From the IMG/VR virus record IMGVR_UViG_3300037234_000698: a stretch of DNA of 20,000 nt. One strand, written 5' to 3'. Below, one piece after another: positions 3,585 to 20,000 of the stretch. How positions within the stretch are numbered: position 1 is the first letter of the stretch; each line of letters opens with the position of its first letter. This DNA comes from an uncultured virus (IMG/VR IMGVR_UViG_3300037234_000698). Taxonomy: Duplodnaviria > Heunggongvirae > Uroviricota > Caudoviricetes. The notes under the pieces are model-generated. The model worked only from the letters and a program-made list of their open reading frames with translations, was not told the origin of the DNA and made no database searches. A program made the translations under genes and the position numbers.

Positions 3585-3585
3585 C

Positions 3586-5282: not shown

Positions 5283-5894
5283 GTGGTACTCACCACGCAG
5301 TTCGATCCACTGTTCCGCGAATACGGAGGCCGTGTGCCGGTCGCATTCCTGCGCGCCCTGGGCAAGCGGGAGTCGAACCTCAACCCGGCCGAGGCCAAGG
5401 ATCCCGCGTGGGGCCTGCTCCAGGTGATCCCCTCCGTCCGCACCAGCCACAACAAGCGCCGCGGGACGAGCTACAGCCAGGGCGACCTGCTCGACCCGGA
5501 GATCAACGTCAGGATCGTCACCGACCTGCTCAACCGGATCGTGACCGCCTACGGCAAGCACCCCAGCGCCAACATGCAAGAGGACTGGACGAACCCCGAG
5601 TTCGTCAACCTCATTACCGCCGGCTGGAACAGCGGCTACTCCGAGGCCGCCGGCGTTGGCCATGTCGCCAGCTGGCTCGAGGCGCACGGCATCCCCGTGA
5701 CGCACGACGCGGTGTTCGAGTACGCCGGCCCGGCGGCCGGCACGCGCCACCTACAGAACGACAAGAAGCGGAGCTGGCAGAAGACCGTGACCGAGCTCTA
5801 CTTCGCCCAGCCGGACGCGGGGAAAGCTGCCGGTGGATTGCTGGCGCTGGCCGTCGTAGGATTCTTTGCGTGGGCCGCCTACCGGCTCCTCTAG
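5283..5894 (+). CDS. Lytic transglycosylase (SLT-like) with C-terminal membrane anchor
   Basis: ALGKRESNLNP (catalytic E-S), AWGLLQV, LLDPEINVR and AGWNSG motifs; C-terminal GGLLALAVVGFFAWAAYRLL. Confidence 0.85.
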   Translation: MVLTTQFDPLFREYGGRVPVAFLRALGKRESNLNPAEAKDPAWGLLQVIPSVRTSHNKRRGTSYSQGDLLDPEINVRIVTDLLNRIVTAYGKHPSANMQEDWTNPEFVNLITAGWNSGYSEAAGVGHVASWLEAHGIPVTHDAVFEYAGPAAGTRHLQNDKKRSWQKTVTELYFAQPDAGKAAGGLLALAVVGFFAWAAYRLL

Positions 5895-5902
5895 GAGAAC
5901 AC

Positions 5903-6454
5903 ATGAGCATCGACACAGCCCGCATCGCCAGGATCCCGAAGGAGGTCGCCCGCGCGCTCCCGAGCTCGAAGCAAGGCGAGACGCCTGGCGCGCTCCAGAA
6001 CGCGAGGACCGATCTCTATACCTACTTCACGCAGATCGGCGACTCGCGCCTGCTCTACTCGGCCGACCGCTGGGTGACCGTCCGGCTCACGCTCGAAACC
6101 GCCGGCCCGGTTGACATCGGCACCGCCGCGAACATCACCCCCGTACTGTCGGGCAAGGGGCGAAGCCTGATTACCGGCGTCGAGTTCGAGACGCGGCTGG
6201 CCAAGGGCTCGCGCCTCTACATCACCGCCCAGTCGATCAACCGCGTCCTGGTGACCATCGAGCCGATCCCCTGGATGGAGCAGATCAGCAACGAGATCAT
6301 CCTGGTCGGCCAGGGCATCATCGCCGCCATCGGCCGACTCAGCCGGTCGAAGGCCGGCGCGGCCACGTCGAGCTCCGGCAAGACGGCCGACGACATCCCC
6401 TGCCCGCCGCCGCAGCGCAAGTTCCTCCCGAAGCTACGTCGGGGTAGGAGGTAG
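5903..6454 (+). CDS. Putative virion structural protein (beta-rich core, possibly single jelly-roll/penton-like)
   Basis: ATG 5903 after AGGAG; alternating beta pattern (VTVRLTLE..GPVDIG...GRSL..G...RLYITA...VLVTIE) and basic C-tail. The fold is inferred. Confidence 0.6.
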   Translation: MSIDTARIARIPKEVARALPSSKQGETPGALQNARTDLYTYFTQIGDSRLLYSADRWVTVRLTLETAGPVDIGTAANITPVLSGKGRSLITGVEFETRLAKGSRLYITAQSINRVLVTIEPIPWMEQISNEIILVGQGIIAAIGRLSRSKAGAATSSSGKTADDIPCPPPQRKFLPKLRRGRR

Positions 6455-6456
6455 AC

Positions 6457-7320
6457 ATGCCCGGATTGCAGCGAGACACCGCATCGAACCGCGTGCAGCG
6501 CAGCCAGGACTACTGGCGGCTGTTCCAAGAGATCCAGAGCTCCGGTGACATCTGGGAGATCGACGAGTCACTCAAGGGCGTGGCCATCGGCCCCGACTCC
6601 GACGTTTCCGAGGTGATCCTTTCCTACTACGATCCCGCCCAGCCGCAGAGCGTCGAGCAGCTCTCGGTCGCCGTTGGCAATCCGTTCGAGGGGCGCATCG
6701 ACGCGCTGATGGGCACCGAGTACCCACAGACCAAGTCGCCGGCGCGGATCCTCATCAGCCTGGGCGACCTGATCGACAACGCCTACGTCCCCCACAACTT
6801 CAACAGCGGCCAAGAGGTCACCAACGACACGATCACCCGGGCTCCGGCGTTTGTCGATTTGCTCGGCTACTTTGACAAGAAGGCCGAGCAGGCGCGGGTC
6901 CGCTCGGATCGCAAGATCCTCTTCTCGCGCTTCAAGGGCGTTCCCGTCGGCGGTCAGCGGTCCTACTACATCGTGCCGTCCTACGGGCGTCGCTACTGTC
7001 GGGCGCTCTTCGTCAACAACGTCTCGGCGTCGCCGGTTTACACGGTGTCCCTGCGGCTACTCGGCGTGCGCCTCGGCCACGGCCTGAACAGCAGCGGCGG
7101 TAACTCGTCGGGCGAGATCGTCATCGGAAGCCACGGGCCGATTGCCGGCGTCGGAGCTGCGCCGGCGGTCAACGGCGACTCGGGGCAGATCATCTTCCGC
7201 AGCAGCCTGCACGGGCTCTTCGACCTCTTGATCCTCGAATGCACCCCCAGCCATCAGATCGCGATCAACGGCACCGACGCCAACATCCGCTTCGATCTGT
7301 CAGACACCGAGGAGGGGTAA
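6457..7320 (+). CDS. Hypothetical protein, 287 aa, probably structural
   Basis: AGGAGG RBS; beta-rich and Gly/Ser/Asn-rich; within the late block. Confidence 0.7.
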   Translation: MPGLQRDTASNRVQRSQDYWRLFQEIQSSGDIWEIDESLKGVAIGPDSDVSEVILSYYDPAQPQSVEQLSVAVGNPFEGRIDALMGTEYPQTKSPARILISLGDLIDNAYVPHNFNSGQEVTNDTITRAPAFVDLLGYFDKKAEQARVRSDRKILFSRFKGVPVGGQRSYYIVPSYGRRYCRALFVNNVSASPVYTVSLRLLGVRLGHGLNSSGGNSSGEIVIGSHGPIAGVGAAPAVNGDSGQIIFRSSLHGLFDLLILECTPSHQIAINGTDANIRFDLSDTEEG

Positions 7321-7677
7321 ATGCCCGCCGCAAACATCGATGAAGCAATCGCCGACGTTGTGACCAACGTGATCATCAAGGCGCCCGTCATGGCGACGGC
7401 CCTCTCGCTGTGGCTGGTGATCTTCGGCCCGACGATCAGCAACCCCTTCGACGAGAACAAGCCCGGCCAGCGCACCGTTAGGGACTGGCAGGTACCAACG
7501 CGCCGTGCGTTCGGCGAGATCCCCGACACCGGCGTGTCGCCGGACTGGCTGACCGAGGAGATCATCTCGATTGTCAACGCCACGCTCGAGGCGGTGAGGG
7601 CTGCCAATGCCGCCGGGCGGATCAGCCAAGCCCAAGAGGACGACACCGTCGCCCAGTACAATATCGCCTGGCCGTAG
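7321..7677 (+). CDS. Hypothetical protein, 118 aa
   Basis: Starts immediately after the upstream TAA, with GAGGAGG RBS; one hydrophobic stretch. Confidence 0.7.
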   Translation: MPAANIDEAIADVVTNVIIKAPVMATALSLWLVIFGPTISNPFDENKPGQRTVRDWQVPTRRAFGEIPDTGVSPDWLTEEIISIVNATLEAVRAANAAGRISQAQEDDTVAQYNIAWP

Positions 7678-7688
7678 GAGGCACTCCC

Positions 7689-8615
7689 ATGATCTCAGTC
7701 ATCACGATCTCCTGTCGCGAAAAGGGCCGTCTCTCCGAGATGGCCAAGACCCTCGTGGCGAACGCTCGCGCGTCCAAGGTCAAGCTCGAATGGATCGTCG
7801 TAGACGAGCAGTTCGCGAAGCCGCACCGGCGCGACTTCACCAAGCTGGTGGGCAAAGCGATCAAGCTCAGGCACATCAAGTTGCCGCTCTCCGATCTCCG
7901 CAAGGCGGGGCTTCCCGATCACAACCGAGCTCGGAACATCGGCCTGGCCGAGGCCAAGGGCAACTACGTCGTGTTCCTCGACGACTGCTATCTGGTCGCG
8001 GACGGCTGGGCCAAGGCCGTGGCTGACGTCGCGAAGGCCGGCAAGGGCTTCCGCCCCAAGATGCACAGCGTCAACAACTTGGTGCTGCCGCCCGATGCCC
8101 TGATCAAGGGGCTGGCGCACTGGGACAAGTTCACCCCGGTAAAGGCAAACACCGTCGCCGGCCCGTGCTGGGGCGCGCCGAAGGCGGCCTTCGACAAGAT
8201 CGTCGGCTTCGATGAGGCCTACTGCGGCCAGGACAAGTACCACGACCTCGACGCCTGCATTCGCCTGGGGCGCGCCGGCGTCAAATTCGTGACCACCGAG
8301 CGCGCGTTCGTCGTCTGCCTTCGGTCAACGAAGGACCACGACGACGTCACCGCCAACAAGGAGGCGCAAGGTGGACACCGAAACCAGAAGCTGTACAACG
8401 ACCTCGTCCTCGACCGCTCTCGCATTGTCCCGGTCAAGCCTGCTGCGCCGGTGGTTGTGGAGCCTCCTACACCTACTCCGGCGCCGCCCCCGGCCGCACC
8501 CCCGGCCGCGAAGCCTGCGGCTCCGAAGGCGCCAGCTCCACCGGCAGTGCCTGGCCCGTCAAATCGTGGAAACCACACGGGCAAACGGCCACCCGCACCA
8601 AAGCCTGTGAAGTAG
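7689..8615 (+). CDS. Glycosyltransferase family 2 (GT-A) with Pro/Ala-rich C-tail
   Basis: ISVIT...EWIVVDE...ARNIGLAEAKGNYVVFLDD; FDKIVGFDEAY...HDLDACIRL. Confidence 0.85.
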   Translation: MISVITISCREKGRLSEMAKTLVANARASKVKLEWIVVDEQFAKPHRRDFTKLVGKAIKLRHIKLPLSDLRKAGLPDHNRARNIGLAEAKGNYVVFLDDCYLVADGWAKAVADVAKAGKGFRPKMHSVNNLVLPPDALIKGLAHWDKFTPVKANTVAGPCWGAPKAAFDKIVGFDEAYCGQDKYHDLDACIRLGRAGVKFVTTERAFVVCLRSTKDHDDVTANKEAQGGHRNQKLYNDLVLDRSRIVPVKPAAPVVVEPPTPTPAPPPAAPPAAKPAAPKAPAPPAVPGPSNRGNHTGKRPPAPKPVK

Positions 8616-8624
8616 GCGGCGGCC

Positions 8625-9257
8625 GTGACCGCCCTGATCACCGTCAACCCGACGCCCCGGCTCGCGCCGGGTCGGCCCCCGTTCGTGACTTCCGGGTACG
8701 GGCCGCGGGAAGGCGGCATGTACTCCACCCACTTCGGCGTCGACCAGCTGGTCAAGCGCCGGGAGGGCGAGCCCGAGAAGAGCCCCGAGGCCACCCTCGG
8801 CCGCGAGCTCGGCTGGTTCCTGCCCTCGCTCGTGCTGCCGGCGGTGGCTGCTGGGGCGGGCCGGGTGATCTCCGCGCGCTGGACAAGCACTGGCTACGCG
8901 GTTCGCATCGACCACGGCGGCGGCTGGTACACGCTCTACTGCCACCTGGGCAACCTCATGGTGCGCAAGGGCCAGTACGTCGAGGCCGGCACCCCGCTCG
9001 GCTGGATCAGCTACTCGCCCTACAAGAGCGGATGCACCTCCCGGCCGGGCCAGCCCTGCAAGATCGGGCTGAACCACCTACACTGGCAGGTCGAGTACGG
9101 CGGCATCGGCAACGCCTTCGCCGTCGATCCCGAAGAGCTCTTCGGACGCCACCTCGAGAATCTGCAGATCATCGACAACCCGCTGGGGAGCTCATTCCTG
9201 GTCAAGCTGGCGCTGGCGGGCTTCGTCGCCTGGGGCGCGTATAGGCTGCTCCAATGA
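8625..9257 (+). CDS. M23-family metallopeptidase with C-terminal membrane anchor
   Basis: TSGYGPR, HFGVD (HxxxD), VRIDHGGGWYTLYCHL, VRKGQYVEAG and HLH motifs; C-terminal TM segment. Confidence 0.9.
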   Translation: MTALITVNPTPRLAPGRPPFVTSGYGPREGGMYSTHFGVDQLVKRREGEPEKSPEATLGRELGWFLPSLVLPAVAAGAGRVISARWTSTGYAVRIDHGGGWYTLYCHLGNLMVRKGQYVEAGTPLGWISYSPYKSGCTSRPGQPCKIGLNHLHWQVEYGGIGNAFAVDPEELFGRHLENLQIIDNPLGSSFLVKLALAGFVAWGAYRLLQ

Positions 9258-10600
9258 TCCACTACGTCGCATTGGACTCCAGCGGAGAGATTCTCGGGGT
9301 CGAGCCAACGGTGGACGACGCGGTGGATGCCGCCCTCGAAGCCGAGCCCGACAAGACCGTCCAGGTGCAGGAGCTCCCCGCAAAGAGCAACCCGCAGGAG
9401 ACGGTGCCGCCGGCCGAGCGCGTGGTCGCGAAGGCCGTCAAGCGGATGGGGCTCGAAGCGCTCACCGGCATGTCCACGATCCCGAGCTCGGCGGCCGATA
9501 TGGACCTCGTGGAAGCGCACGAGCGGGTCATGGGCTACTTCCAGGGCCTGCGGTCGCGCAAAGACAGCGACGTCAAGGTCTACGACACCGTCTCCGGAAC
9601 CGTTGACGCTTGGATCGGCCAGAACTATAAGACGGTGAAAGAGCACCCCGAGCAAAAGTCGAAGGTGATGGGGCTGACCCTGACGCCGCACGAGCTCGTC
9701 TACCAGATCGCGCGCAAGCCAGGCCTCTACAGTCGCAAGTTCACCAACCGGCTGAAGAAGGTGCTCCCTCCGATGCCGCATTCGTTCACGTTCTGCGCGG
9801 GCTCGAACGATCTTTGCCGCGACTCGTGCCTGGTTCACGCCGGCCAGAACTCCGGGCCGATTTACAACACGCACCGCAAGGCCATGCAGACCGCCGTGCT
9901 GCTCAACGAGCCGCAGGCCTTCATGCGCCTCCTGGTGGCGGCGGTGCAGAAGCACGAGTGCGTCGCCCCGGCCGAGGGATACGTCCCCTACATGCGCCTC
10001 AACGTGGTGTCCGACATTCCCTGGGAGCGGGTCACCCCGTGGCTCTTTGAGCTCTTCCCGGATCTTTCGTTCTATGACTACACGAAGGTGGGGAAGCGGA
10101 GCCCGCCGGACAACTACGAGCTCACCTTCTCGTTTTCGGGAGACAACAAGAGCCAGTGTCAGAGGGAGATTGCCGAGCTTGGCCGCAAGGTCGCGGTGGT
10201 GTTCCTGGCGAAGAGGTGGGGCACGAAGAAGGGCGTGAAGGGCAAGAGCTGGGTGCCGATTTGGAGGGGGGACAAGGCGGGCGTGCGACCCCTGCCGACC
10301 ACCTTCTGGGATCTGCCGGTGCTCGATGGCGACGTCAGCGACGTTCGCCCGCTGGACCCCGTGTCACCCGCGATTGTCGGCCTGCGCTGGAAGATCCCCA
10401 GCGGCAAGCGCGCCGGCAAGGTCGTGGACGCGACCCAGGAGAAGTTTACTTTCGTCACGCCGGTCTACGTGGTTGACGGAGAGGCACACATCGACGCGCC
10501 CTTTGCTCGGCCGAACCCGGCCCGAGAGCAATTCCTGATCTCCGCGGCCACCCCGAGATTTGAGAACATCATCCACGACGTCGGCCAGCCTGGGCTATGA
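9254..10600 (+). CDS. GP88-like phage protein (Cx6Cx3C cluster)
   Basis: FCAGSNDLCRDSCL, RLNVVSDIPWE, FYDYTK, PDNYELTFS, VAVVF, LDGDVSDVRPLD and IVGLRWK match the recalled GP88 family pattern. Confidence 0.75.
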   Translation: MIHYVALDSSGEILGVEPTVDDAVDAALEAEPDKTVQVQELPAKSNPQETVPPAERVVAKAVKRMGLEALTGMSTIPSSAADMDLVEAHERVMGYFQGLRSRKDSDVKVYDTVSGTVDAWIGQNYKTVKEHPEQKSKVMGLTLTPHELVYQIARKPGLYSRKFTNRLKKVLPPMPHSFTFCAGSNDLCRDSCLVHAGQNSGPIYNTHRKAMQTAVLLNEPQAFMRLLVAAVQKHECVAPAEGYVPYMRLNVVSDIPWERVTPWLFELFPDLSFYDYTKVGKRSPPDNYELTFSFSGDNKSQCQREIAELGRKVAVVFLAKRWGTKKGVKGKSWVPIWRGDKAGVRPLPTTFWDLPVLDGDVSDVRPLDPVSPAIVGLRWKIPSGKRAGKVVDATQEKFTFVTPVYVVDGEAHIDAPFARPNPAREQFLISAATPRFENIIHDVGQPGL

Positions 10601-11046
10601 GCGAGCGGAACTTCGACAGAGTCTCGGCCAGGCTCTACCAGGGCGGGCGCGTGGACGGTCGATACGCCTACAAGCCGTTCGACATGATCGTGCTCTGCTC
10701 CGAGGAACACCAGCCGCGCATGTCGAGGTTCCACGGCAAGATCGTCAGGCCTCGCTTCGACGACACCCTCTACCCCAACGAGCGAGAGACGGCCGCGGCT
10801 TTCGCGGCGGCCAAGCAGGTCGCCGGCGAGCTCTACAAGGGCGGGGTGGTCCTGGTCACATGCTCAGCCGGGCTCAACCGCAGCGGCCTGGTGACCGGCC
10901 TGGCGCTCTGCATGGGCACGAAGCTGCACGGCGAGCAGATCGTCACACTGATACGGCGAGCGCGGGGGGATTGGGCGCTAGGGAACCGGACATTTGAGAA
11001 GATGGTTCGCGACTTCGCCCAGGGGAAAGCTCGGCACCGCGCCTGA
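10597..11046 (+). CDS. Dual-specificity/tyrosine phosphatase-like protein
   Basis: P-loop VLVTCSAGLNRSG (CX5R); RLYQGG; FDD acid loop; IRRAR..ALGN..F; ATGA overlap with the upstream gene. Confidence 0.85.
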   Translation: MSERNFDRVSARLYQGGRVDGRYAYKPFDMIVLCSEEHQPRMSRFHGKIVRPRFDDTLYPNERETAAAFAAAKQVAGELYKGGVVLVTCSAGLNRSGLVTGLALCMGTKLHGEQIVTLIRRARGDWALGNRTFEKMVRDFAQGKARHRA

Positions 11047-11203
11047 GTTCCTCGATGCGCCCCTGGATAGCCGCCTGGCAGCCGGGGCAGGTAGCCTCCG
11101 ACATAAACAGGGTGGTCGCGTCGCCGGCCTCGCCGAGCTCGAGCCCACACGCGGTTTCGCGCAGGTCACCCGAAAAATCTACCCAGTGAATCCCCCCTAC
11201 CAT
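10943..11203 (-). CDS. Small Zn-binding phage protein
   Basis: AGGAGG RBS at the stop of the M23 gene; H...ACG...TCPGC motif. The 3' end overlaps the phosphatase gene convergently by about 100 bp. Confidence 0.55.
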   Translation of the reverse strand: MVGGIHWVDFSGDLRETACGLELGEAGDATTLFMSEATCPGCQAAIQGRIEELRRGAELSPGRSREPSSQMSGSLAPNPPALAVSV

Positions 11204-11216
11204 CGGTCGCAGCCTC

Positions 11217-11846
11217 CTAGCTGATCACTCGGCGACCAAAGTGGGGCAAATAGAGCCGGGGGTCAAGGGGAAGGCCGGGTCGGTCGGTCGGATTGGGGAC
11301 GCCAAACTCCCAGAGCTCTAGGTGGACGTGGTTTCTCTCGGTCGGCCCTTCGCCGACGATGCCGATCTCCTGGCCGGCATAGAGCGGCTGGCCGCCCCCC
11401 TTGCCTGGCCAGGGGTCCACGAACATCCGGCTCATGTGCGTCACGTACGAATTGAGCAGGATGCCGGCGTGGTCGCCATGGTCGATCCTGACGGTCCAGC
11501 CCCACTCGGTTTCGCCTGCGAACCAGACGCGCCCTGGGCCAACCGCGAGGGCCGGGATCTTCCCGGTGGGCACGAAATACCTGTTGTGCCCCAGGGCGCC
11601 GTCGAGGCCCCCGTAGACCTCGGGGTAGTTCTGCGGGAGCAGGTCGACCAACCAGTTGAGGTAGGCCAGGTCGCTCCCCCAGTGGTCCGGTCCCCAGCTG
11701 TTGCCGGTCCACACCGGCTCCTGATCTTGGAACACTCCCATGGGCCATACCCAGCCCGAGAAGTCTCCCTTCGGGGTTTCGGTGGCCGGCTCGACTGGGA
11801 GGCGCAGAAGAAGATCGCCGGTGGCGCCCAAGGCCGCTACCGTCAC
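11217..11846 (-). CDS. Second M23-family peptidase (no obvious TM; candidate soluble endolysin)
   Basis: WVWPM, HWGSD (HxxxD), GWTVRIDHG, YVTHM, AGQEIGIVG, NHVHLE. Confidence 0.8.
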   Translation of the reverse strand: MTVAALGATGDLLLRLPVEPATETPKGDFSGWVWPMGVFQDQEPVWTGNSWGPDHWGSDLAYLNWLVDLLPQNYPEVYGGLDGALGHNRYFVPTGKIPALAVGPGRVWFAGETEWGWTVRIDHGDHAGILLNSYVTHMSRMFVDPWPGKGGGQPLYAGQEIGIVGEGPTERNHVHLELWEFGVPNPTDRPGLPLDPRLYLPHFGRRVIS

Positions 11847-12100
11847 TGCGCGACTCGGCGCTCGGCGCGCGACCTATCCTCGATCTCGTCGAGCTTTTCT
11901 TCGAGTGCATCTAGCAGGCGGCGAGCTCCGGCGATGTGCCGGCGGGCCAGAAACGAGCTCCGGCAGGTTTCCCCGTTCCGGTCAAACTCGCGGGCAACCA
12001 TGAAGCTGACATGGCCGGTGGCGAGTCGTTCGCTAACGACCGCGACGACCCCATCGGGATCTCGCAGTGTCTCGACTTCGCGAAAGTCGGTTCGGGGCAT
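11843..12100 (-). CDS. Hypothetical protein, 85 aa
   Basis: ATG at 12100 with GAGGTG RBS; GTGA overlap with the M23 gene. Confidence 0.65.
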   Translation of the reverse strand: MPRTDFREVETLRDPDGVVAVVSERLATGHVSFMVAREFDRNGETCRSSFLARRHIAGARRLLDALEEKLDEIEDRSRAERRVAQ

Positions 12101-12279
12101 CAATACACCTCGTAGTCCGTCCAATCTCCCTGTCCCCGGAGCTTGATTGAAACCGTGCCGCCCTTCCTCGGTTTGTGCTTCCGCAAGAAGGTGTCCATCG
12201 CACCCTTCACGCTGCGAGCCCAGACTGTCGCCATCTGGCCCCCCGGCCCTCGGACGAGATATGCCTTCTCGGCTGGCAC
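12100..12279 (-). CDS. Small basic protein, 59 aa (absent from the ORF track), probably leaderless
   Basis: MPAEKAYLVRGPGGQMATVWARSVKGAMDTFLRKHKPRKGGTVSIKLRGQGDWTDYEVY; TGATG coupling to the next gene; GTG lies 6 nt after TGcTAGTAT. Confidence 0.6.
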   Translation of the reverse strand: MPAEKAYLVRGPGGQMATVWARSVKGAMDTFLRKHKPRKGGTVSIKLRGQGDWTDYEVY

Positions 12280-12294
12280 GGCCCGATACTAGCA
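12277..12294 (-). promoter_or_regulatory. Extended -10 motif plus GTG, TGCTAGTATCGGGCCGTG (inverted repeat of 14123-14140)
   Basis: 16/18 identity to 14123-14140 on the opposite strand. Confidence 0.6.
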
Positions 12295-13014: not shown

Positions 13015-13859
13015 ATTTCCTCCGCAACGTCGTCGAGCTCCTGGCCGCGGTCGTGGTCGACGTAGCCCATAGCCGTCGCCAGCGAGGCCCACTGCATGTG
13101 CTGCTGCAGCTTCACCGCGGCGAAGGCGTCAGGGCCGAGAGCCTGGAGGTACTCAACCGCGTAGGTGCGACGCAGCCTGTGGGGGTACAGGCTTTCAACG
13201 CCGACCTGCCTCCCGCAGTGAGCAAGAGCTCGCGCGGTTGCGCGGCCGGCGGCTGCGCGGCGAGTAGCCTCCCTGGCCCTCGGCGAAATGAGATCCTCGA
13301 CACGCTCCCACCTGACAGCTTTATTGGCTAAAAGAAGCAGATACGGTTTGAACGTGTCGAGGACTCGGAACTCCAATCTTCGGCGACCCTTGGCCTCGTA
13401 GGCAAGCGTCCCCTGGCGCAAAGCGGCGACCACCTCGCGGCGCCGGAGCCGGAGCACGTCCCCGCACCGGAAGCCGCGCGAGGCCATGAGCCCGAGCTCG
13501 GCGCGCATCGCGTCGTCGAGGTAGTCGGCACTGTTGATCTCGTCCACCAGGGCAAATAGCTCGGCGCGCTCAATCGGCACCTTCGCGCTCTTTCGCCTGG
13601 GGGCAGGCAGGCGGATCTTCTCGATCTCGACGAGCAGCTGTTGGTCGCCCTTGAACCGCGCCCAGCGCCGACAGGCCGCCGAGATGTGCCGGAGGGTCTT
13701 GGGCGCGAGCTCCGGGTCACGCAGGCGCCGGAGCGGCCCGCCCTCCCTATAGGCCTTCCGGACGTCGTGGGCGTAGAGCTTGATCGTCCCCGGCGATAGG
13801 CCGTACTCGCCCAGGTGTCCGCGGAAGCGTTCGATTTCCCTGGCTCTCGGTGGCGGCAT
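12999..13859 (-). CDS. Tyrosine recombinase/integrase, 286 aa
   Basis: SPGTIKLY SAM-like N-domain; catalytic R (GFRCGD), K (EAKGRR), HxxR (PHRLRRTYA), W (HMQWAS), Y (AMGYV). Confidence 0.92.
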   Translation of the reverse strand: MPPPRAREIERFRGHLGEYGLSPGTIKLYAHDVRKAYREGGPLRRLRDPELAPKTLRHISAACRRWARFKGDQQLLVEIEKIRLPAPRRKSAKVPIERAELFALVDEINSADYLDDAMRAELGLMASRGFRCGDVLRLRRREVVAALRQGTLAYEAKGRRRLEFRVLDTFKPYLLLLANKAVRWERVEDLISPRAREATRRAAAGRATARALAHCGRQVGVESLYPHRLRRTYAVEYLQALGPDAFAAVKLQQHMQWASLATAMGYVDHDRGQELDDVAEEMWKRQ

Positions 13860-13884
13860 GTCGGTAAAAGGAGTTTACCCGACA
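13859..13884. promoter_or_regulatory. Inverted repeat with spacer at the recombinase start (candidate att/lox/dif-like site)
   Basis: TGTCGGTAAA-AGGAG-TTTACCCGACA; arms match apart from one extra base. Confidence 0.5.
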
Positions 13885-13894
13885 GATCCCACGA

Positions 13895-13924
13895 TTGACG
13901 CAAGGCCCCGCAAGGGTTACAAAT
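13895..13924 (+). promoter_or_regulatory. Candidate sigma70 promoter TTGACG-N17-TACAAA(T) with two CGCAAGG direct repeats
   Basis: Good -35, imperfect -10; upstream of a structured region that ends in a terminator. Confidence 0.4.
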
Positions 13925-13929
13925 TGAAT

Positions 13930-14017
13930 GTCGGCGGCCCTCGGGTCGTCCCATGTCGTCCTTGCTTCGGCAGGGAGTCCCGCCTCCCCGGGTGTCCCCC
14001 TGGGGGGGCATTTTTTT
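13930..14017 (+). ncRNA. Candidate small RNA of about 88 nt
   Basis: Hairpin GGCGGCC-CTCG-GGTCGTC, hairpin TCCTTGC-TTCG-GCAGGGA, C-rich linker, then terminator; no credible ORF. Confidence 0.45.
13993..14017 (+). terminator. Rho-independent terminator
   Basis: TGTCCCC-CTGG-GGGGGCA stem-loop followed by T7. Confidence 0.7.
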
Positions 14018-14122
14018 GGCAACGCCAACGTGGGCAAGCTGGTGATCGCGAACTATCAGGTTGCCGGTCACCTGGCGTGTCACTTTCGGCCGATCCCCGT
14101 TGTAAGATCCAGCGGGGGGCCG

Positions 14123-14140
14123 TGCTAGCATCGAGCCGTG
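14123..14140 (+). promoter_or_regulatory. Extended -10 motif plus GTG, TGCTAGCATCGAGCCGTG
   Basis: TGnTANNNT; GTG start 6 nt downstream with no SD; inverted copy at 12277-12294. Confidence 0.6.
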
Positions 14141-14353
14141 AGGCTTATCGACGCGAACACGGGCCACGAGCCCAAGGTCGGCGAGACGTTCAAAAACGTG
14201 CTCGGATTCGTGACGGTGCTTCGGGTGAAGGAGGGAATCTTCTCAGCCCAGGCCCTGGTCGACGTGAACGGAGAGAAGCACTGGTGGCCGTTGGTGGTGC
14301 GCTACATGCACCCTGGCTTCATGCTCCAAAGGATCCTCTTCATTCCGAGCTAA
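14138..14353 (+). CDS. Hypothetical protein, 71 aa, probably leaderless
   Basis: Protein-like composition; its stop overlaps the convergent gene's stop. Confidence 0.6.
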   Translation: MRLIDANTGHEPKVGETFKNVLGFVTVLRVKEGIFSAQALVDVNGEKHWWPLVVRYMHPGFMLQRILFIPS

Positions 14354-14544
14354 AACAAGCTCTGCTGCGCCTTGCCCTTCCACTCCTCCGAGTCGGGGCA
14401 CGTCACCCAGTGAGGCACGCGGCCCGTGAGGGTCTGGCCGTCGTTGGTGATGAAGGTCTGCACGAGCTCGTCGCACGGCATCGGCTTGCCGGCGATGGTT
14501 TCGATCCAGACGATCTCGGCGCCGCACGACTTGCACTGCGCCAT
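14350..14544 (-). CDS. Small Zn-binding phage protein, 64 aa
   Basis: CKSCGAEIVW..T..GKPMP.D...HWVTCP, a common phage small-protein pattern; GAGG RBS and TGATG coupling. Confidence 0.75.
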   Translation of the reverse strand: MAQCKSCGAEIVWIETIAGKPMPCDELVQTFITNDGQTLTGRVPHWVTCPDSEEWKGKAQQSLF

Positions 14545-14804
14545 CAGAGAGCCGCCTCGACGCAGCGCGGGCAGTAGTCGACGGTGTCCTCGATGTCCCC
14601 GACTTCGACGTCGCCGATCTTGGTGCGGTGCTCTTCGCAGACGCGCATATCGCACACCCCCGACTTCTTCCTCGGCCGCGGCCCGTCGCACTCATACGCC
14701 GCGTAATTGTCGCAGCCTCGCACCTGGCACTTGCGCGGCCTAACGCCGCGACAGCAGACGATTGCGACCGTTCCGTCGCGCGTCTTGAAGGTTTCGCACA
14801 CCAT
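14544..14804 (-). CDS. Cys-rich phage protein, 86 aa
   Basis: ATG 14804 after GGGAGGGG; C..C...CD...CD..VC..H...DYCP.C. Confidence 0.75.
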   Translation of the reverse strand: MVCETFKTRDGTVAIVCCRGVRPRKCQVRGCDNYAAYECDGPRPRKKSGVCDMRVCEEHRTKIGDVEVGDIEDTVDYCPRCVEAAL

Positions 14805-14842
14805 TTTGCCCCTCCCGTCGGCTATTCCCGATGTCTCCGCTG

Positions 14843-14972
14843 ACGTTAGCACAATGATCCGGACTACCTCCACTGTTCACAGTTTGTCCACAGCCGGGAG
14901 TCGAAGTGGTTTCGGTGATCTGCGAATTTGTCGCACAAAAAACTTGCCCGACCGTGCGGCCGATGGTTTGAT
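14843..14972. promoter_or_regulatory. Divergent control region: leftward TGcTAACGT, two DnaA-box-like 9-mers, TGCGA-N5-TCGCA dyad, rightward TTGCCC-N17-TTTGAT
   Basis: CTGTTCACA 14873-14881; TTGTCCACA 14884-14892; dyad 14921-14935; A-tract, then -35 at 14944-14949 and TG-extended -10 at 14967-14972. Confidence 0.55.
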
Positions 14973-14982
14973 GCGCGTCGCC

Positions 14983-15276
14983 ATGGGGGACAACATGCGG
15001 GTGCGTGATCGGATTAGGGGAGCACGCGAGGTGGCCGGGCTTACGGCCGCCCAGTGCGCCCGAGCAATGGGCTGGTCGCACCACAAAATGTGGCAGCGAC
15101 TCGAGGACGGCGAGCGGAAGGTCGACCTCGAAGAGATCGCCTCTATCGCCAGCATTCTCGGCGTGACCGTCTCGCACCTATTCGGCGAGCAGCCGGTGAT
15201 GCTACCTCACTACAAAAAGCGCGGACGACGACCTGGGACTGCACTCGTGGGGGACGCCGGTGGATTGGGAAAATGA
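14983..15276 (+). CDS. XRE-family HTH regulator (cro-like position)
   Basis: RIRGAREVAGLTAAQCARAMGWS...QRLEDGERKVDLEEIASIASILGVTVSHLF. Start is 14983 or 14995. Confidence 0.85.
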   Translation: MGDNMRVRDRIRGAREVAGLTAAQCARAMGWSHHKMWQRLEDGERKVDLEEIASIASILGVTVSHLFGEQPVMLPHYKKRGRRPGTALVGDAGGLGK

Positions 15277-16135
15277 GGACTGGGTCAAGCTGTACACCAG
15301 AGACACGGCCGACCTCCTGGCCATCGGGCCGGAAGGGCGACTCGTCTGGTACGAGATGCTCCGCAAGGTCGACCGCGCTGGAGTGATCGACACCGCCGGC
15401 GACCTGGAGATCCTTCCCGAGCTCTTGCGGGTGCCGATCCCCATGTTCGAAGTCGGCTGGGCGCGCATCGTGGCGCGCAACATGGTGGAGATCAGGCCCA
15501 CGGCGATCCTCATCCCCAACTTCGATGACGCCCAGCGCTCGCGGCAGTCCGACGCCCAGCGCCAGAAGGCCAGCCGGGAGCGTCGACGCGCACGGGTTCG
15601 AGCGCAAGAATTGCAGGCCGGCACACCATCCGTCACGAATTGTGACGAGTCAGAGTCACAAAACGTGACCGGAGCGTCACAGTCAGTCACGAGTAGAGTA
15701 GAGAGAGTAGAGAGATTAGATGTGAGTAGAGAGGATCCTCATCCGCGGCACCCGGGCGAGCAGGTAAAAGGCGATGACCCCAACGCGGACGAAGACACAC
15801 CGCCCACCCCCAGCGAGCACCTGAATGGCTACGACCTGGAAGCGGTGTACGCCCTCTACCCTCGGAAGGCAGGAAAGGCCAAGGGCCTGCAGAAGCTGGA
15901 GGAGAGGTCGCATCAAAAGGGCTTCGACTACGACCGGATCCTGGCGGCCGTCCGCTCGATGGCCGAGACGTGGAAGGGCAAATCCACGACGTTCTGCCCT
16001 CACTTCTCGACGTTCGTAAACGGCCAGCGGTGGCTCGATGACGAGCTACCGCAGCCCGATCAGGACAACCGGCGCGGGTATGCCGATCCCAGCACCGACG
16101 AAGAGCTCGAGGCCAGTCAGGAGATTGCGTTTTGA
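15260..16135 (+). CDS. Phage replication initiator (lambda O/replisome-organiser-like)
   Basis: N-terminal WVKLY; central repeat-encoded linker; C-terminal YPRKAGKAK...HFSTFVNGQRWLD; followed by a DnaC-like ATPase. Confidence 0.8.
   Translation: MDWENEDWVKLYTRDTADLLAIGPEGRLVWYEMLRKVDRAGVIDTAGDLEILPELLRVPIPMFEVGWARIVARNMVEIRPTAILIPNFDDAQRSRQSDAQRQKASRERRRARVRAQELQAGTPSVTNCDESESQNVTGASQSVTSRVERVERLDVSREDPHPRHPGEQVKGDDPNADEDTPPTPSEHLNGYDLEAVYALYPRKAGKAKGLQKLEERSHQKGFDYDRILAAVRSMAETWKGKSTTFCPHFSTFVNGQRWLDDELPQPDQDNRRGYADPSTDEELEASQEIAF
15631..15733. repeat. Putative replication origin: GTCAC/GTGAC iterons plus a purine-rich tract
   Basis: CGTCAC-N5-GTGACG 15631-15647; GTCAC-N5-GTGAC 15655-15669; GTCAC at 15676 and 15686; then GAGTAGA-type repeats. 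Confidence 0.7.
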
Positions 16136-16881
16136 GCGAGCGGAAGCGCGAGGCGGTGGCGGTCGGCGACCTCGCCGAAGAGTGGCTGGCGGTCCAGAAG
16201 CGGACGCTGGAGATCCTACCCGAGGAGCCGGCCGTCGATGCGGCCGAGCAAGCGCGAAAGGAGGCCGAGGCCAAGATCGCCGAGCAGTCCGAGGAGAATC
16301 GCCGCCGGCTGATGCGAGCGGTCGACCGCCTGGGCGTCCCCCTTCGGCACGCCCAGCAGATCATGTTCGGGAAGGTCGAGGACAGCGAAGCGCTACAGGT
16401 GGTCGCGAAGTGGCGAAGCCTCAACAACCGCGGCGCGCTGCTCGTGCTCTGCGGCAACGTCGGCTGCGGTAAGACGCTGGCGGCGGCCAAGGCGGTGCTA
16501 GACGGCCCCCCGCTGGACCGCCTGGGCAAACCGTGGCCGGACAGGTACCACGCTCGCTTCCTCGACGTGGCCGATCTCCACGAGCTGGGGCTGTTCGACC
16601 GGAGCGGAATGTATGAGCCGCTTTTCAAGTGCTCGGTCCTGGTGATCGACGACGTCGGCACCGAGTACGACGACAAGTCCGGTGTGATGCGCGTGATCCT
16701 CGACCGCATCGTCAACAAGCGCTACGCCGGCGGCGGATGGACGGTGATCACGACCAACCTCGCCTCGGGCGCGTTCAGAGAGCGCTACGGCGAGCGAATT
16801 ATGAACCGGCTGCACGACGACGGGTGCGGCTTCCAACGGGTACAGGGACAGTACCGAGAAAGGACGACAGATGGACAATAA
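16132..16881 (+). CDS. DnaC/IstB-like AAA+ helicase loader
   Basis: Walker A GNVGCGKT, Walker B LVIDDVG, IVNKRY, TVITTN, YGERIMNRL. Confidence 0.9.
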   Translation: MSERKREAVAVGDLAEEWLAVQKRTLEILPEEPAVDAAEQARKEAEAKIAEQSEENRRRLMRAVDRLGVPLRHAQQIMFGKVEDSEALQVVAKWRSLNNRGALLVLCGNVGCGKTLAAAKAVLDGPPLDRLGKPWPDRYHARFLDVADLHELGLFDRSGMYEPLFKCSVLVIDDVGTEYDDKSGVMRVILDRIVNKRYAGGGWTVITTNLASGAFRERYGERIMNRLHDDGCGFQRVQGQYRERTTDGQ

Positions 16882-17539
16882 CGAACAAAACGAACTGGAT
16901 GAGCTAAAGGAGGAAACGCTGGCCAACTTCCGCCACGTTCACGAGCGACTCGACGCGCTTGAGAAGCTGGAGGTGGCGATCAACGGCGACACCGCCGGGA
17001 AGCAGCACTCCATCCGCGACAGCATCGCCAACCTCTGGGAGAAGGTCCGCGCCATCGAGGCGAGCCTGCACGGCGAGGACCACGACCAGCGGGCGCGCTG
17101 GGAGGAGCTCGACGCCCGTAGCGAGACGCCCAAGGATGTGGAGCGGCCGTCGGGCGAACCCACCGGGCTGATCCACGACGTGACCGAGATGGCCCTGCTC
17201 GTCGGCAACCTGACCGCCGACCTGGGCAAGAGCCACGAGCTAGTATCGGTGGTGCGCAAGCTGGAGGCGAAAGTCAACGTCCTGGGCGCCGGCAAGGACT
17301 GGGCGACTCGGGTGCAACTCGACGAGGCCATCGGCAAGCACGCCAAGGCGATGTCCCAGCGAATCGCCGACGTGAGCGCCGACGTGCGCGACAAGCTGAA
17401 GGGGATCTCGGCCGACGATCTGGCGACCGCCGTGCGCTGGGCCGCCAAGTACAAGCGCGAGGTCGAGATCAGGCTGGCTATGCCATCGCGCTTCGAGGCG
17501 CTGGTGTTCGGGCTGACCGGCCGGAACGGGAGGCGATGA
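16871..17539 (+). CDS. Coiled-coil hypothetical protein, 222 aa
   Basis: AAGGA RBS; helical heptad composition; overlaps both neighbours. Confidence 0.75.
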   Translation: MDNNEQNELDELKEETLANFRHVHERLDALEKLEVAINGDTAGKQHSIRDSIANLWEKVRAIEASLHGEDHDQRARWEELDARSETPKDVERPSGEPTGLIHDVTEMALLVGNLTADLGKSHELVSVVRKLEAKVNVLGAGKDWATRVQLDEAIGKHAKAMSQRIADVSADVRDKLKGISADDLATAVRWAAKYKREVEIRLAMPSRFEALVFGLTGRNGRR

Positions 17540-17760
17540 TGCCAGAGGGACGCACGGGACTGAAGCGAGAAGAGCTGGAGAAGGTGTGCGGCCAGCTCGC
17601 GCGCGAGGTGATCGTGCCCCTGGTGCCGCCAGGCGCCGGCTTCACCTTGCTGCTCTTCGACCTGGGAGCGAAGGGCAACATCGCCTACATGTCGAGCGCT
17701 AAGCGCGAGGACATGATCACCGCGCTCGAAGAGCTGATCACCACGCTCCAGGGAAATTGA
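17536..17760 (+). CDS. Hypothetical phage protein, 74 aa
   Basis: ATGA overlap with GGGAGG RBS; GFTLLLFD...YMSSAKREDMI.AL.E pattern seen in small phage proteins. Confidence 0.75.
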   Translation: MMPEGRTGLKREELEKVCGQLAREVIVPLVPPGAGFTLLLFDLGAKGNIAYMSSAKREDMITALEELITTLQGN

Positions 17761-17761
17761 C

Positions 17762-18325
17762 GTGACGCGCTGGACCTACGAGGAGGTCAGGCAACTCTAC
17801 AGGCGAGCCGAGGAAGCGGAGAAGCGGGCAGAGGAGGGCGAGGTAGAGCTCGCGCGAGCGAACGCCAGGATCAAAACGCTGCACTCCAAGTTCCGCTTCC
17901 CCGGCAACGAGGAGGATCACGAGCCCTTCGACAAGGGAGCCGCCGACGCGCTGGCCGCTGCGGCCGACGTGATGGTGCATCGCAAGCTGATCGACGCGCG
18001 GTCGCTCGTGGCCGATGCCAGGCTTGACTACGGCGAGCCCTGGTCCCACGAGGACGCCCTGGAGATCCTCGACGGCAAGCGGCAACCATCGGCGACGACC
18101 AGCGCGGCGCGCGACGCCTTCGATGCCATCGCCAAGGCCGTCGGTTGCCCCGAGTGGGACTACCCCGGCCAGCTGGTGCGCGACGTCGAGGCGCTGGCTA
18201 CGAAAGCGCAGAAGGTCGAGCGCTGGCTCAACCAGCTGACCGGCGCGTCCGTGGAGCACGCCGAGGGATATGAAGGCCCGTGCCTCTGCTCGGAGTGTCA
18301 CGGCCTAGCCGCGGAGGACGGATGA
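17762..18325 (+). CDS. Hypothetical protein, 187 aa, with C-terminal H...CxCxxC
   Basis: Operonic packing; coding-like codon usage. Confidence 0.7.
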   Translation: MTRWTYEEVRQLYRRAEEAEKRAEEGEVELARANARIKTLHSKFRFPGNEEDHEPFDKGAADALAAAADVMVHRKLIDARSLVADARLDYGEPWSHEDALEILDGKRQPSATTSAARDAFDAIAKAVGCPEWDYPGQLVRDVEALATKAQKVERWLNQLTGASVEHAEGYEGPCLCSECHGLAAEDG

Positions 18326-18918
18326 AGATCGAGTGTGAATGTGGCCGGCAGCAGACCGTCGTTCCGGCCAACATGGAGGGCGGCATCACCGAGCTCGAAG
18401 CGCAGTCCATCGGCTGGGAGGTAAACGAGGAAGGATGGCACTGCCCGTTCTGCACTGGCAAAACGGAAAAGCTGCGCGAGATATTCGCGGGGAGGCCGAG
18501 TCGGCCGCGGTCGATTGAGGAGCGCGCGGCAAAGGTCGCCGGGTACTGCCGCTGGCTTCGAGCCCACGGCCTCGACGAGAAGCAAAAACCGCGGACGGGA
18601 ATGAACGCCTTGATCGCCTGCTGGTGGGTGATCAACTGCCTCGGCGGGCTCTTCGACGACGAAGACGACTTCGACAAGCCCTACCAGATCACCGGCTGCG
18701 ACTGCCGGGCCTGCGAGGCTGAGCGCAAGAGGTGCCAGAGCGACTTGCACCACCCCGATCAGACGGTGAGCGAAACGATGGTGATGATCTGGTGTGACGA
18801 CAAGCTCGAAACGATCCGAGCATGTTTGAAGCACGGGAAGGGTCTTGACGACGCGGCCGTGGAGGACGTGATCAGGAGAGCGGCCGAGGCGTGTCGCGAA
18901 AGGGAACCGCGCGGGTGA
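18322..18918 (+). CDS. Cys-rich hypothetical protein
   Basis: ATGA overlap after GGAGG; CECG, CPFC and CDCRAC motifs. Confidence 0.7.
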   Translation: MKIECECGRQQTVVPANMEGGITELEAQSIGWEVNEEGWHCPFCTGKTEKLREIFAGRPSRPRSIEERAAKVAGYCRWLRAHGLDEKQKPRTGMNALIACWWVINCLGGLFDDEDDFDKPYQITGCDCRACEAERKRCQSDLHHPDQTVSETMVMIWCDDKLETIRACLKHGKGLDDAAVEDVIRRAAEACREREPRG

Positions 18919-19079
18919 GCAGCAGAGCGGAGAAGCGCCGGCGGGACTTCCGCCAGCGCCAGCTGAAACGCGAGGAGGCGATCCGCAAGAGGGAGAACTG
19001 GGAGTGCCGCTACTGCGGCGCGCCCGTTCCGGGGTGGAGCCCGATCTGCCTCTGCGGGCACGTCCGCGACAGCGAATAG
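18915..19079 (+). CDS. Small basic Zn-finger protein
   Basis: GTGA overlap; WECRYCG...CLCG. Confidence 0.6.
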   Translation: MSSRAEKRRRDFRQRQLKREEAIRKRENWECRYCGAPVPGWSPICLCGHVRDSE

Positions 19080-19086
19080 GAGCGAC

Positions 19087-19653
19087 ATGGGACACAAGCC
19101 GAGGAAGAAGCCGCAGGAGCGATTCCGCGTGGTGTGCGCCGATCCCCCCTGGCCGTATGACGACCGCGGGAGCCGGATGGCGCCGAGCTACGCGGGGCCG
19201 GGCCGGGCCAAGGCTCACTACCAGATCGAAACGGCCGCGACGATCAAGTCCATGGGCAAGCTGGTCAAGCTGCTGGCCGCCGAGGACAGCTTCCTGTTTC
19301 TCTGGGTGCCGAACGCCCTGGTCCCGCTCGGCCTGGAGGTCATGGCCGCCTGGGGATACGCCTACAAGACCATGATCACTTGGGTGAAAACGACCAAGGA
19401 TGGCAAGCCGAGGATCGGCGGCGGCCACTACACCCGGGGCTGCACCGAGCAGCTCCTGCTGGGCCGCGGCGGGCTCGCCAAGGTCCGCGCTCACAACGTC
19501 CCCAACGTGATCCTGGCGCCCAGGGGCCGGCACTCGGAGAAGCCAGACCAGAGCTACGACCTGATCGAGCGGCTCTGCAAAGGCCCCTACCTGGAGCTCT
19601 ACGCGCGCCGGCAGTACAGCGAGCTCTGGTCGGTCTGGGGGAATCAGCTGTAG
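19087..19653 (+). CDS. MT-A70-family N6-adenine methyltransferase
   Basis: ADPPW, FLFLWVPN, WGYAYKT.ITWVK, TEQLLLG, HSEKPD, YLELYAR. Confidence 0.92.
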   Translation: MGHKPRKKPQERFRVVCADPPWPYDDRGSRMAPSYAGPGRAKAHYQIETAATIKSMGKLVKLLAAEDSFLFLWVPNALVPLGLEVMAAWGYAYKTMITWVKTTKDGKPRIGGGHYTRGCTEQLLLGRGGLAKVRAHNVPNVILAPRGRHSEKPDQSYDLIERLCKGPYLELYARRQYSELWSVWGNQL

Positions 19654-19666
19654 GGCGTCAAGGTCG

Positions 19667-19696
19667 TTGACGACGGATCGGCTGGACCCCTATACT
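19667..19696 (+). promoter_or_regulatory. Sigma70-type promoter TTGACG-N18-TATACT
   Basis: Near-consensus hexamers in intergenic DNA ahead of the AGGAG RBS and ATG 19758. Confidence 0.7.
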
Positions 19697-19757
19697 TTCC
19701 AAGACCTACGGCGCTACTCTCCGGAGCGCGGGGCATTCAAACAGGAGAGAAGCGCCA

Positions 19758-20000
19758 ATGGCCACGAAGAAGGGGCTTGCTGCTAACCGGAAGCGGCGTC
19801 AGGCGAGGAAGAAAACATCCCTCGTTGCGAACCCGCCCATCCTCAAAGACCTAACCGGGTTCATTCTCCCGGGCTTCGGAGCCTACGCCGCGACGCGGCT
19901 GCTCTCGCGCATGATCTACTCGATGGTGCAGCGGAGGTGGCCCAAGTTTGGCAAGCACGCCGCGGCCCTGGGTGCCGTCGGCGCCTTCGGCGGTTCCTGG
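19758..20000 (+). CDS. Partial membrane protein with basic N-terminus (possible virion inner-membrane protein)
   Basis: MATKKGLAANRKRRQARKKTSLVANPPILKDLTGFILPGFGAYAATRLLSRMIYSMVQRRWPKFGKHAAALGAVGAFGGSW...; open to the window end. Confidence 0.75.
   Translation, partial: MATKKGLAANRKRRQARKKTSLVANPPILKDLTGFILPGFGAYAATRLLSRMIYSMVQRRWPKFGKHAAALGAVGAFGGSW

Follow-up and report, generated by a model that had tools for sequence, protein, structure and literature searches.

Predicted C-terminal membrane anchors of unrelated wall hydrolases vary together within the genomes of a family of uncultured viruses

The 20,000-nucleotide stretch of the uncultured virus IMGVR_UViG_3300037234_000698 (hereafter the window) encodes two wall hydrolases that end in a putative membrane helix. 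The first, a lytic transglycosylase of the SLT family (5283..5894, + strand, 203 aa; Pfam SLT, E 1.4e-8), has a catalytic glutamate (Glu30) that is invariant over 36 aligned rows, and finishes in an 18-residue tail anchor that reaches the stop codon (5838..5891, + strand; mean hydropathy 1.94). It appears to lack an N-terminal signal (maximum hydropathy 0.39 in the first 40 aa), both this absence and the membrane helix being judged from hydropathy alone. The second, an M23 peptidase (8625..9257, + strand, 210 aa; Pfam M23, E 6.9e-15), has intact HxxxD and HxH motifs (H36, D40, H151 and H153 invariant over 12 rows), is likewise without an N-terminal signal (N-terminal hydropathy 0.61) and carries its C-terminal anchor at 9198..9254 (+ strand). 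Another M23 peptidase (11217..11846, - strand; Pfam M23, E 1.3e-9) is tail-less (C-terminal hydropathy -0.1) and is a candidate soluble lysis enzyme.

Directly upstream of the transglycosylase, in the window and also in relatives, runs a set of genes (3626..5233, all + strand) that comprises a holin-like gene (3626-3895; phrog_9987 holin, E 0.0048), an inner-spanin-like gene (4107-4520), an overlapping lipoprotein-like outer spanin with an uncertain start (about 4288-4668; a hydrophobic stretch followed by LGC) and a DnaJ-domain gene (4640-5233; DnaJ, E 0.0011). The two spanin roles are suggested by the layout, and the gene at the place of the holin-like one in relative G003 matches a Pfam holin at E 8e-9. 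On the 3' side, three conserved genes follow (5903-6454, 6457-7320 and 7321-7677, + strand; of 12 related genomes, 10, 8 and 3, respectively, have a homologue), in an order behind the transglycosylase that is the same in relatives, and their products are candidate vertex proteins and partners of the tails. A PDB sequence search with two of the genes after the transglycosylase returned zero and one weak match, respectively, and no PDB sequence match was assigned, while a promoter and terminator scan of 3100-11300 gave nothing above shuffled sequence. At the window's edge lies the 5' part of a core gene (19758..20000, + strand; about 215 aa in relatives) that has an orthologue in 12 related genomes and matches no Pfam or PHROG family. 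Its product, referred to below as the 19758 protein, consists of a basic arm, Asn-Pro, three long helices and an acidic tail.

The initial annotation had read a pattern common to these three proteins, GF.A[WY][AG]A[YT]RLL, as a candidate sorting signal of a virion membrane. All three matches lie where they had been placed (5859-5891 in the transglycosylase, 9219-9251 in the M23 peptidase and 19872-19904 in the first helix of the 19758 protein), and no other match occurs in any of the window's six reading frames. The two hydrolase tails do have 12 of 18 residues in common, with identical codons at only 4 of these 12, and an Asn-Pro does precede the GF by 12 residues in the M23 peptidase (9177-9182) and the 19758 protein (19830-19835), although the transglycosylase has none at that distance. 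The pattern was defined after the three sequences had been viewed, hence chance was assessed outside the window, on 15,927 hydrophobic 11-mers from 1,636 called proteins of the window and 12 related genomes (hydrolase tails excluded). Twelve of these 11-mers reached 6/11 identity to either hydrolase motif and a single one reached 7/11, namely that of the 19758 orthologue of G004; the 19758 helix of the window scores 8/11 and 7/11 against the two motifs. The likeness of this helix to the hydrolase tails is thus uncommon, yet across relatives only the two hydrolase tails form one class.

What is conserved in the virus family is an 18-residue C-terminal helix ending in aromatic-x-x-Tyr-Arg/Lys-Leu, found on SLT, M23, amidase and GDSL proteins; it is present on an SLT-family protein in 12 of 13 gene sets and on an M23 protein in 11 of 13. 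On a profile from which it had been left out, the window's transglycosylase tail came fourth of 757, and the window's M23 tail ranked first of 756 on a profile made solely from the transglycosylase tails of other genomes. The SLT-tail-only profile, applied to 756 proteins that have hydrophobic segments, placed 12 of 16 M23, amidase and GDSL tails among the first 25; two of the four GDSL tails fitted poorly (ranks 231 and 303). The hydrolase tails are a distinct class, borne by four unrelated hydrolase families. Searching 1.84 billion proteins with a tail profile of 24 columns yielded no match at E 0.001, the information in the profile being too low to judge spread. Of the original proposal, the portable single helix on unrelated enzymes, maintained at the protein level, held up; the fixed motif did not, since its exact form occurs in 3 of 146 distinct transglycosylase tails (the window's included). 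Nor did the spacing: among the tails, Asn-Pro comes before 4 of the 20 from M23 peptidases and 2 of the 146 from transglycosylases, so that the one at 9177..9182 (+ strand) is not conserved, and we rejected Asn-Pro as a general tail signal or release site. More broadly, no invariant motif stands ahead of the helix.

The third protein also drops out. Had one sorting signal, with its 12-residue Asn-Pro spacing, been common to all three, the hydrolase tails would imitate the first helix of the 19758 protein and dock in its lattice. This is very doubtful, even though the window's 19758 helix places its own transglycosylase tail 2 of 146, its 8/11 identity is rarer than anything in the background, and a similar match occurs in a close relative (P0123 with P0005, a pairing that is indirect). 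In 11 other genomes the helix showed no co-variation with the hydrolase tails (p=0.56), and it holds to its own consensus at positions where those tails differ; its rank on the tail profile is 126 of 756 in the window and 94-534 in relatives. It is moreover internal and weakly hydrophobic (1.15), continuing into an amphipathic stretch, and Asn-Pro is rare ahead of hydrolase tails. In an alignment of 17 rows of the 19758 protein, N22 is invariant and P23 nearly so. The predicted model of relative P0122 has helices at 25-57, 62-83 and 85-110; a fold search of a 19758 relative in BFVD gave no matches at E 0.001, and its Atlas fold matches were all below the naming threshold. The 19758 protein thus probably stands outside the hydrolase tail system, its helix would be a separately conserved element that by chance resembles this lineage's tail type, and the third match is probably a coincidence.

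Tail sequences of unrelated hydrolases were compared within and between genomes. In 17 of 20 genomes (quantile <0.5; SLT/hydrolase pairing indirect in four) they were closer to each other than to the tails of other genomes, with a mean quantile of 0.19; G001 (0.56), c49511 (0.53) and G015 (0.66) showed no matching. Against the pool, the own-genome transglycosylase tail had a mean quantile of 0.194 (16 pairs from 14 genomes), which none of 20,000 permutations equalled, and the permutation value without the window was 0.00015. Six further pairs gave 0.192, and in a strict set 10 of 12 units matched (sign p=0.019). Four replicate genomes resemble one clade, and their SLT label comes from BLAST linkage (Pfam gave no match in the two tested). 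Shuffled tails reached 0.39 +/- 0.065 (lowest of 60, 0.285), a GC-proxy-matched control retained a quantile of 0.19, and restriction to the 20 nearest SLT relatives yielded 0.255, hence the co-variation survives composition, GC-proxy and nearest-relative controls. Composition accounts for part of the signal, as the shuffles lie at 0.39 rather than 0.5 and hydropathy itself co-varies between hydrolase tails (rho 0.62). Tail anchoring is a general habit of the structural module in this family, which has 10-20 tail-anchored proteins, but matching was not seen for 87 structural-module tails: hydrolase-hydrolase comparisons gave p=0.012, as against 0.16 for hydrolase-structural and 0.39 for structural-structural ones. 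A genome-wide tail style imposed by host lipids or base composition was accordingly not seen in the structural tails. As far as sequence comparison goes, the tails of unrelated hydrolases co-vary within genomes at the protein level.

Such matching could be ancestry only, if new hydrolase domains had taken over the 3' end of the resident transglycosylase gene by recombination, the borrowed copies then drifting under ordinary anchor constraints with no specific code. The M23 peptidases do split into several subfamilies, with an amidase or GDSL protein in their place elsewhere, and tail type changes often (50 changes over the 146 leaves of the SLT tree, 70 when shuffled); synonymous sites could saturate fast, and the three genomes without matching fit as well. 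We nevertheless regard borrowing as improbable. In the 12 pairs with DNA, synonymous codons were the same at 43 of 84 sites (41.8 expected), an absence of excess that also leaves recent duplication or conversion of tail DNA without support; the few identical codons in the window, despite the many residues in common, argue the same way. Furthermore, the tails of a single M23 subfamily made up of orthologues continue to follow those of the transglycosylases (13 of 720 permutations).

The architecture has known counterparts. PRD1 P7 and gp23 of the Rhodococcus tectivirus Toil are described as having a lysozyme-like domain at the N-terminus plus a transmembrane one at the C-terminus and as virion-associated entry enzymes (PMC5773508). 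PRD1 P14 is presented as the anchor alone, proposed to join P7 beneath the vertices as a hetero-multimer (PMC6750898), and Bam35 P26 as a transglycosylase that includes a transmembrane domain (PMC8539640). In the features given there, the window's enzyme resembles PRD1 P7/P14 (gene VII), Toil gp23 and Bam35 P26 as a wall hydrolase with a membrane anchor and no signal peptide; with P7 and gp23 it has in common the N-terminal lysozyme-like domain with its catalytic Glu and, by hydropathy only, the C-terminal transmembrane helix without an N-terminal signal. A transglycosylase anchored by its C-terminus in the virion membrane is therefore not new in kind. The shared anchor of PRD1, as reported, comes from one gene, whereas here separate genes encode unrelated enzymes whose anchors change together between lineages; this within-genome co-variation is what is new, and the titles and abstract openings surveyed contained nothing on matched hydrolase tails.

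We put at roughly even odds (about 0.5) the reading that the shared tails are PRD1-P7-like anchors of wall hydrolases in the virion membrane, matched through packing together or on one partner. The catalytic domain would fold in the cytoplasm, because the enzymes carry no signal peptide, and the last 18 residues would insert into a patch of host membrane destined to become the inner membrane of the virus. The enzyme would then sit between membrane and capsid and, on entry, cut the wall of the next host, as PRD1 P7 does. The tails may stay matched because one helix surface packs tail with tail, in a mixed oligomer of the kind suggested for P7 and P14 of PRD1, or, alternatively, because they pack on one lineage-specific partner; either packing would bring wall cutters of complementary action together at a single site of entry. 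The joint change of the anchors suggests that the enzymes are assembled into one entry complex in the inner membrane.

The gene neighbourhood offers a different use for the tails, namely that they belong to lysis enzymes and keep them on the inner membrane of the host up to the moment of holin action, matched to the holin or release route of each genome. In both the window and relatives, the transglycosylase gene comes after those for holin-like, spanin-like and DnaJ proteins, and C-terminally anchored endolysins do exist, the anchor being needed for lysis on overexpression in the accounts available (PMC8943055, PMC7143992). Enc34 ORF39 and BSPM4 M4Lys, as described there, are similar to the enzyme here in their catalytic N-terminus, membrane-spanning C-terminus and nearby holin and spanin genes. 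These endolysins are, however, reported to have a PHA02564 domain (with a two-helix anchor in Enc34), to be encoded between holin and spanins and to be the sole lysin candidate. Here, the tail is one helix, a single uncharged run of about 18 residues, on several enzymes with Pfam SLT and M23 domains; the transglycosylase lies behind the holin- and spanin-like genes rather than between them and is followed by conserved genes and, in G001 and G009, by long genes of a putative spike role. The window and the four relatives checked each encode a tail-less wall hydrolase (M23, 3D, GH25 or M15), and the generality of tail anchoring in the structural module is likewise against a lysis role, which we consider unlikely. 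In weighing the entry reading, the separate presence of tail-less wall hydrolases for lysis was counted in favour, and the position of the transglycosylase directly after holin- and spanin-like genes against.

More tentatively, and as a possibility only, the tail might be a lineage-specific address, a helix code that bolts captured wall-degrading domains (transglycosylase, peptidase, amidase or esterase) onto one multi-enzyme entry machine in the inner membrane and drifts in concert over a lineage's whole set of cargo genes, distinct from the structural anchors. Portable C-terminal helices with a basic end on unrelated proteins are familiar from the bacterial sorting signals GlyGly-CTERM, MYXO-CTERM and PEP-CTERM, models of which are included in the NCBIfam library. 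The hydrolase tails are like these in form, but their enzymes lack an N-terminal signal peptide (hydropathy 0.39 and 0.61) and an invariant motif ahead of the helix. Whole proteins and 40-residue tails matched no CTERM-type model of NCBIfam up to E 5, the best tail match being EppA (14 bits, cut-off 90).

How membrane proteins are chosen for, and placed in, virions of internal-membrane viruses is poorly known, and a series of matched tails made by nature gives a direct handle on the choice. Were the match an interface, it would explain the modular exchange of entry enzymes among these viruses and provide a tag, short and portable, with which cargo could be loaded into particles that contain a membrane; were it ancestry only, the finding would shrink to the design already known from PRD1 P7, now in a virus family not described before.

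The capsid evidence is drawn from relatives, as the window does not extend to the capsid genes of its own virus. In contrast to PRD1, these relatives have genomes of 68-86 kb and two capsid candidates of about 200 aa each (the pair occurs in 11 of 12). A poor model of one candidate (pLDDT 45) gave jelly-roll-type matches (best Z 6.7) and Atlas leads to the PM2 P2 / PRD1 P3 families at 0.76-0.78, which weakly suggests a virus family with an inner membrane and a jelly-roll capsid. Tectiviruses and their relatives have an FtsK-like packaging ATPase; a Walker-A pattern scan found no conserved candidate for one, which, like the poor capsid model, counts against the entry reading, and a HerA-like ATPase is encoded in G003 only.

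A six-frame scan of the window with the pattern GFxA[WY][AG]A[YT]RLL returned three sites and none elsewhere: two at the ends of the lytic transglycosylase (SLT, gene 5283..5894, plus strand; site 5859-5891) and of the M23 peptidase (gene 8625..9257, plus strand; site 9219-9251), and one inside the product of the core gene 19758..20000 (plus strand, 5' part within the window; site 19872-19904). The positions agree with those of the initial annotation, which had read the pattern as a candidate virion-membrane sorting signal on three unrelated proteins. The likeness of the two hydrolase tails (i.e. C-terminal membrane helices) also stands, with 12 of 18 residues and 4 codons identical; both enzymes have intact catalytic residues and neither carries an N-terminal hydrophobic signal. 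The shared feature is real, for two of the three proteins.

Among the matches listed (120 of 207), nearly all SLT homologues bear a hydrophobic C-terminal helix, and in the non-duplicate loci the tail was present on 36 SLT frames and absent from 12. The exact motif was found in 3 of 146 distinct SLT tails (drawn from 119 listed homologues and the loci, with a hydropathy of at least 1.4 required), while the commonest column residues were W (41%), G/A (62%), Y (63%), R/K (52%) and L (41%); thus the helix type is conserved and the motif is not, contrary to what had been proposed. Judged by sequence, what is conserved is a C-terminal helix of 18 residues whose end is aromatic and weakly basic. The idea of a portable helix on unrelated enzymes was borne out, since an amidase and GDSL esterases bear the same tail type too, and tailed SLT-family and M23 proteins were present in 12 and 11 of 13 gene sets, respectively. 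Hydrolase tails differ from those of the structural modules (n = 87) in having an aromatic residue within the last ten (25/25 vs 53/87), fewer Lys/Arg (1.6 vs 3.3) and fewer residues beyond the helix (3 vs 6). On a profile built from SLT tails alone (window left out) the M23 tail of the window ranked first of 756, and 12 of the 16 non-SLT hydrolase tails fell in the top 25, the misses being three GDSL tails (231, 303 and 73) and one M23 (82).

The test of co-variation took every non-SLT hydrolase tail in turn and recorded where the SLT tail from that genome stood among all SLT tails, low quantiles denoting a better fit. The mean quantile was 0.194 (16 pairs from 14 genomes, in 4 of which the SLT and partner tail were paired solely through longest contigs of equal length), a value as low as which appeared in 0 of 20,000 permutations (0.00015 without the window). 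Six pairs from genomes found later via the capsid gene gave 0.192, although four of them appear to form a single clade and owe their SLT label to BLAST linkage. Quantiles lay below 0.5 in 17/20 genomes, the three without matching reaching 0.53-0.66, and in 10/12 of a strict set (window and length-paired genomes out, clade merged; sign p = 0.019); for one orthologous M23 type in six genomes the count was 13/720 permutations. Composition accounts for part of the matching and not all of it, as residue-shuffled tails gave 0.39 +/- 0.065; the quantile stayed at 0.19 in a GC-proxy-matched ranking and was 0.255 against the 20 nearest SLT relatives. Identical codons at 43 of 84 shared residues (12 pairs with DNA), where 41.8 were expected, give no sign of recent gene conversion, which we consider unsupported; that tails were borrowed repeatedly and their synonymous sites have since become saturated appears improbable to us. 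Tail matching is confined to hydrolase pairs (hydrolase-hydrolase p = 0.012, hydrolase-structural p = 0.16, structural-structural p = 0.39). On the SLT tree the tail type required 50 changes, against 70 in shuffles; it tracks the tree loosely and changes often.

A tail-anchored protein without a signal peptide inserts its tail while the enzyme domain stays cytoplasmic, and the two window hydrolases, having no such peptide, would be disposed in the same way. The design is already known: PRD1 P7, a virion entry enzyme, is an SLT with a C-terminal anchor and Toil gp23 is built alike (as described in excerpts of PMC5773508), and P14, an anchor alone, has been proposed to join P7 in a mixed multimer under the vertices (excerpts of PMC6750898). 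The likeness lies in the combination of SLT and C-terminal anchor. By analogy, we infer a P7-like entry role for the tailed hydrolases, in which those of the window would act as entry enzymes of the virion, and the tails of several enzymes would be matched because they share a common packing surface. No description of unrelated enzymes with anchors that match and change together was found in the open-licence papers searched. Holin-like and spanin-like genes upstream of the SLT could instead mark the tailed hydrolases as lysis enzymes, and endolysins with C-terminal membrane domains are known (excerpts of PMC8943055 and PMC7143992), but the window and the four relatives checked each encode a wall hydrolase without a tail, and we hold this reading, though a serious rival, to be unlikely.

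The 19758 protein probably does not belong to the tail system: in 11 genomes other than the window its helix showed no co-variation with the hydrolase tails (p = 0.56), and on the tail profile it ranked 126/756 in the window and 94-534 in relatives. Whatever the hydrolase tails are like, this helix keeps its own consensus and, in 8/12 genomes, a fixed distance to the Asn-Pro (NP) dipeptide. Twelve retrieved genomes carry an orthologue of the gene, the gene product is a distant paralogue of a capsid-adjacent arginine-rich NP protein (E 9e-8), and the model of a relative predicts NP followed by three long helices, the weakly hydrophobic motif lying inside the first. It is very doubtful that this helix genuinely shares the hydrolase signal: in the window its own SLT tail ranks 2/146 and its identity to the tails is one that no background 11-mer attains, yet this likeness is the very case picked by the initial annotation. 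The 12-residue NP-to-GF spacing is present in the window M23 and 19758 proteins, as noted there, and is not a general rule, since NP precedes few hydrolase tails (4/20 M23, 2/146 SLT).

The window holds phage replication, integrase and methylase genes, among them one for an MT-A70 methylase (19087-19653). A 70,805-base contig, one of whose proteins is identical to that encoded by the 3' part of the 19758 gene, is probably the same virus. Fifteen related records were retrieved (genes called by our own codon-score script), and family tests covered 12 of them plus the window, omitting G011 (a near copy of G010) and the fragments G006 and G007. Two capsid candidates of ~200 residues and the arginine-rich NP protein are common to 11/12 relatives. 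The capsid candidate gave a poor model (pLDDT 45) with a strand pattern matching jelly-roll folds (Z up to 6.7), its closest named Atlas clusters being the PM2 P2 and PRD1 P3 families (0.76-0.78), matches that we regard as leads, not proof. Each genome encodes ~10-20 proteins with a membrane helix at the C-terminal end, and these, together with the capsid candidates, make a tailless particle enclosing an inner membrane the likely prediction. No Walker-A packaging ATPase conserved across the same gene sets (G001-G004, G009-G017) was recovered by a pattern scan, while 10/12 of these genomes encode a transglutaminase-like protein and a coiled-coil protein of ~600 aa. Many tail-anchored proteins of their structural modules have Met-Ser/Thr/Ala-Tyr at the start (60% of 87 when the pattern is taken loosely) and a Lys/Arg run at the end. 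The 81.5-kb virus G005 (L075-L079), with no match to the capsid candidate, has a tailed SLT of the same family and a separate set of proteins with tail anchors.

In six integrated or contig-borne elements (L038, L040, L050, L051, L082 and L083), SLT and M23 proteins of these families have no C-terminal tail but a similar helix at the N-terminus (tail-profile ranks 13-163 of 757), so that, on sequence grounds, a membrane anchor, whether N- or C-terminal, seems to be required by these enzymes. Matching of the N-terminal helices within the six was not significant (55/720). The elements are small, four of them come from Myxococcales bins, where several adjoin an integrase-like gene, and a capsid candidate was found in 0/4 of the genomes searched; an Arg-Asn pair recurs in several of their proteins, akin to the Asn-Pro repeats of the window virus.

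The three genes 3' of the SLT (window 5903-7677), the first of which looks beta-rich, keep their order across relatives and had no Pfam, PHROG, NCBIfam or PDB sequence match; a glycosyltransferase (7689-8615) precedes the M23 gene, and a GP88-like protein with two NP pairs (9254-10600) and a dual-specificity phosphatase (10597-11046) follow it. At the SLT position of the cassette, G009 has a gene (L097:9913-10413) for a protein whose N-terminal helix is aromatic-basic and which gave no Pfam hydrolase match, and directly before the M23 gene of G002 lies a 44-codon frame (L061:10630-10764) that, with Asn-Pro and a membrane helix at its end, resembles an anchor-only protein in sequence. Next to the SLT cassette, the capsid candidate has a second, diverged copy in some relatives, at L068:1060-1620 (G003), L099:11247-11960 (G010) and L014:2381-3043.
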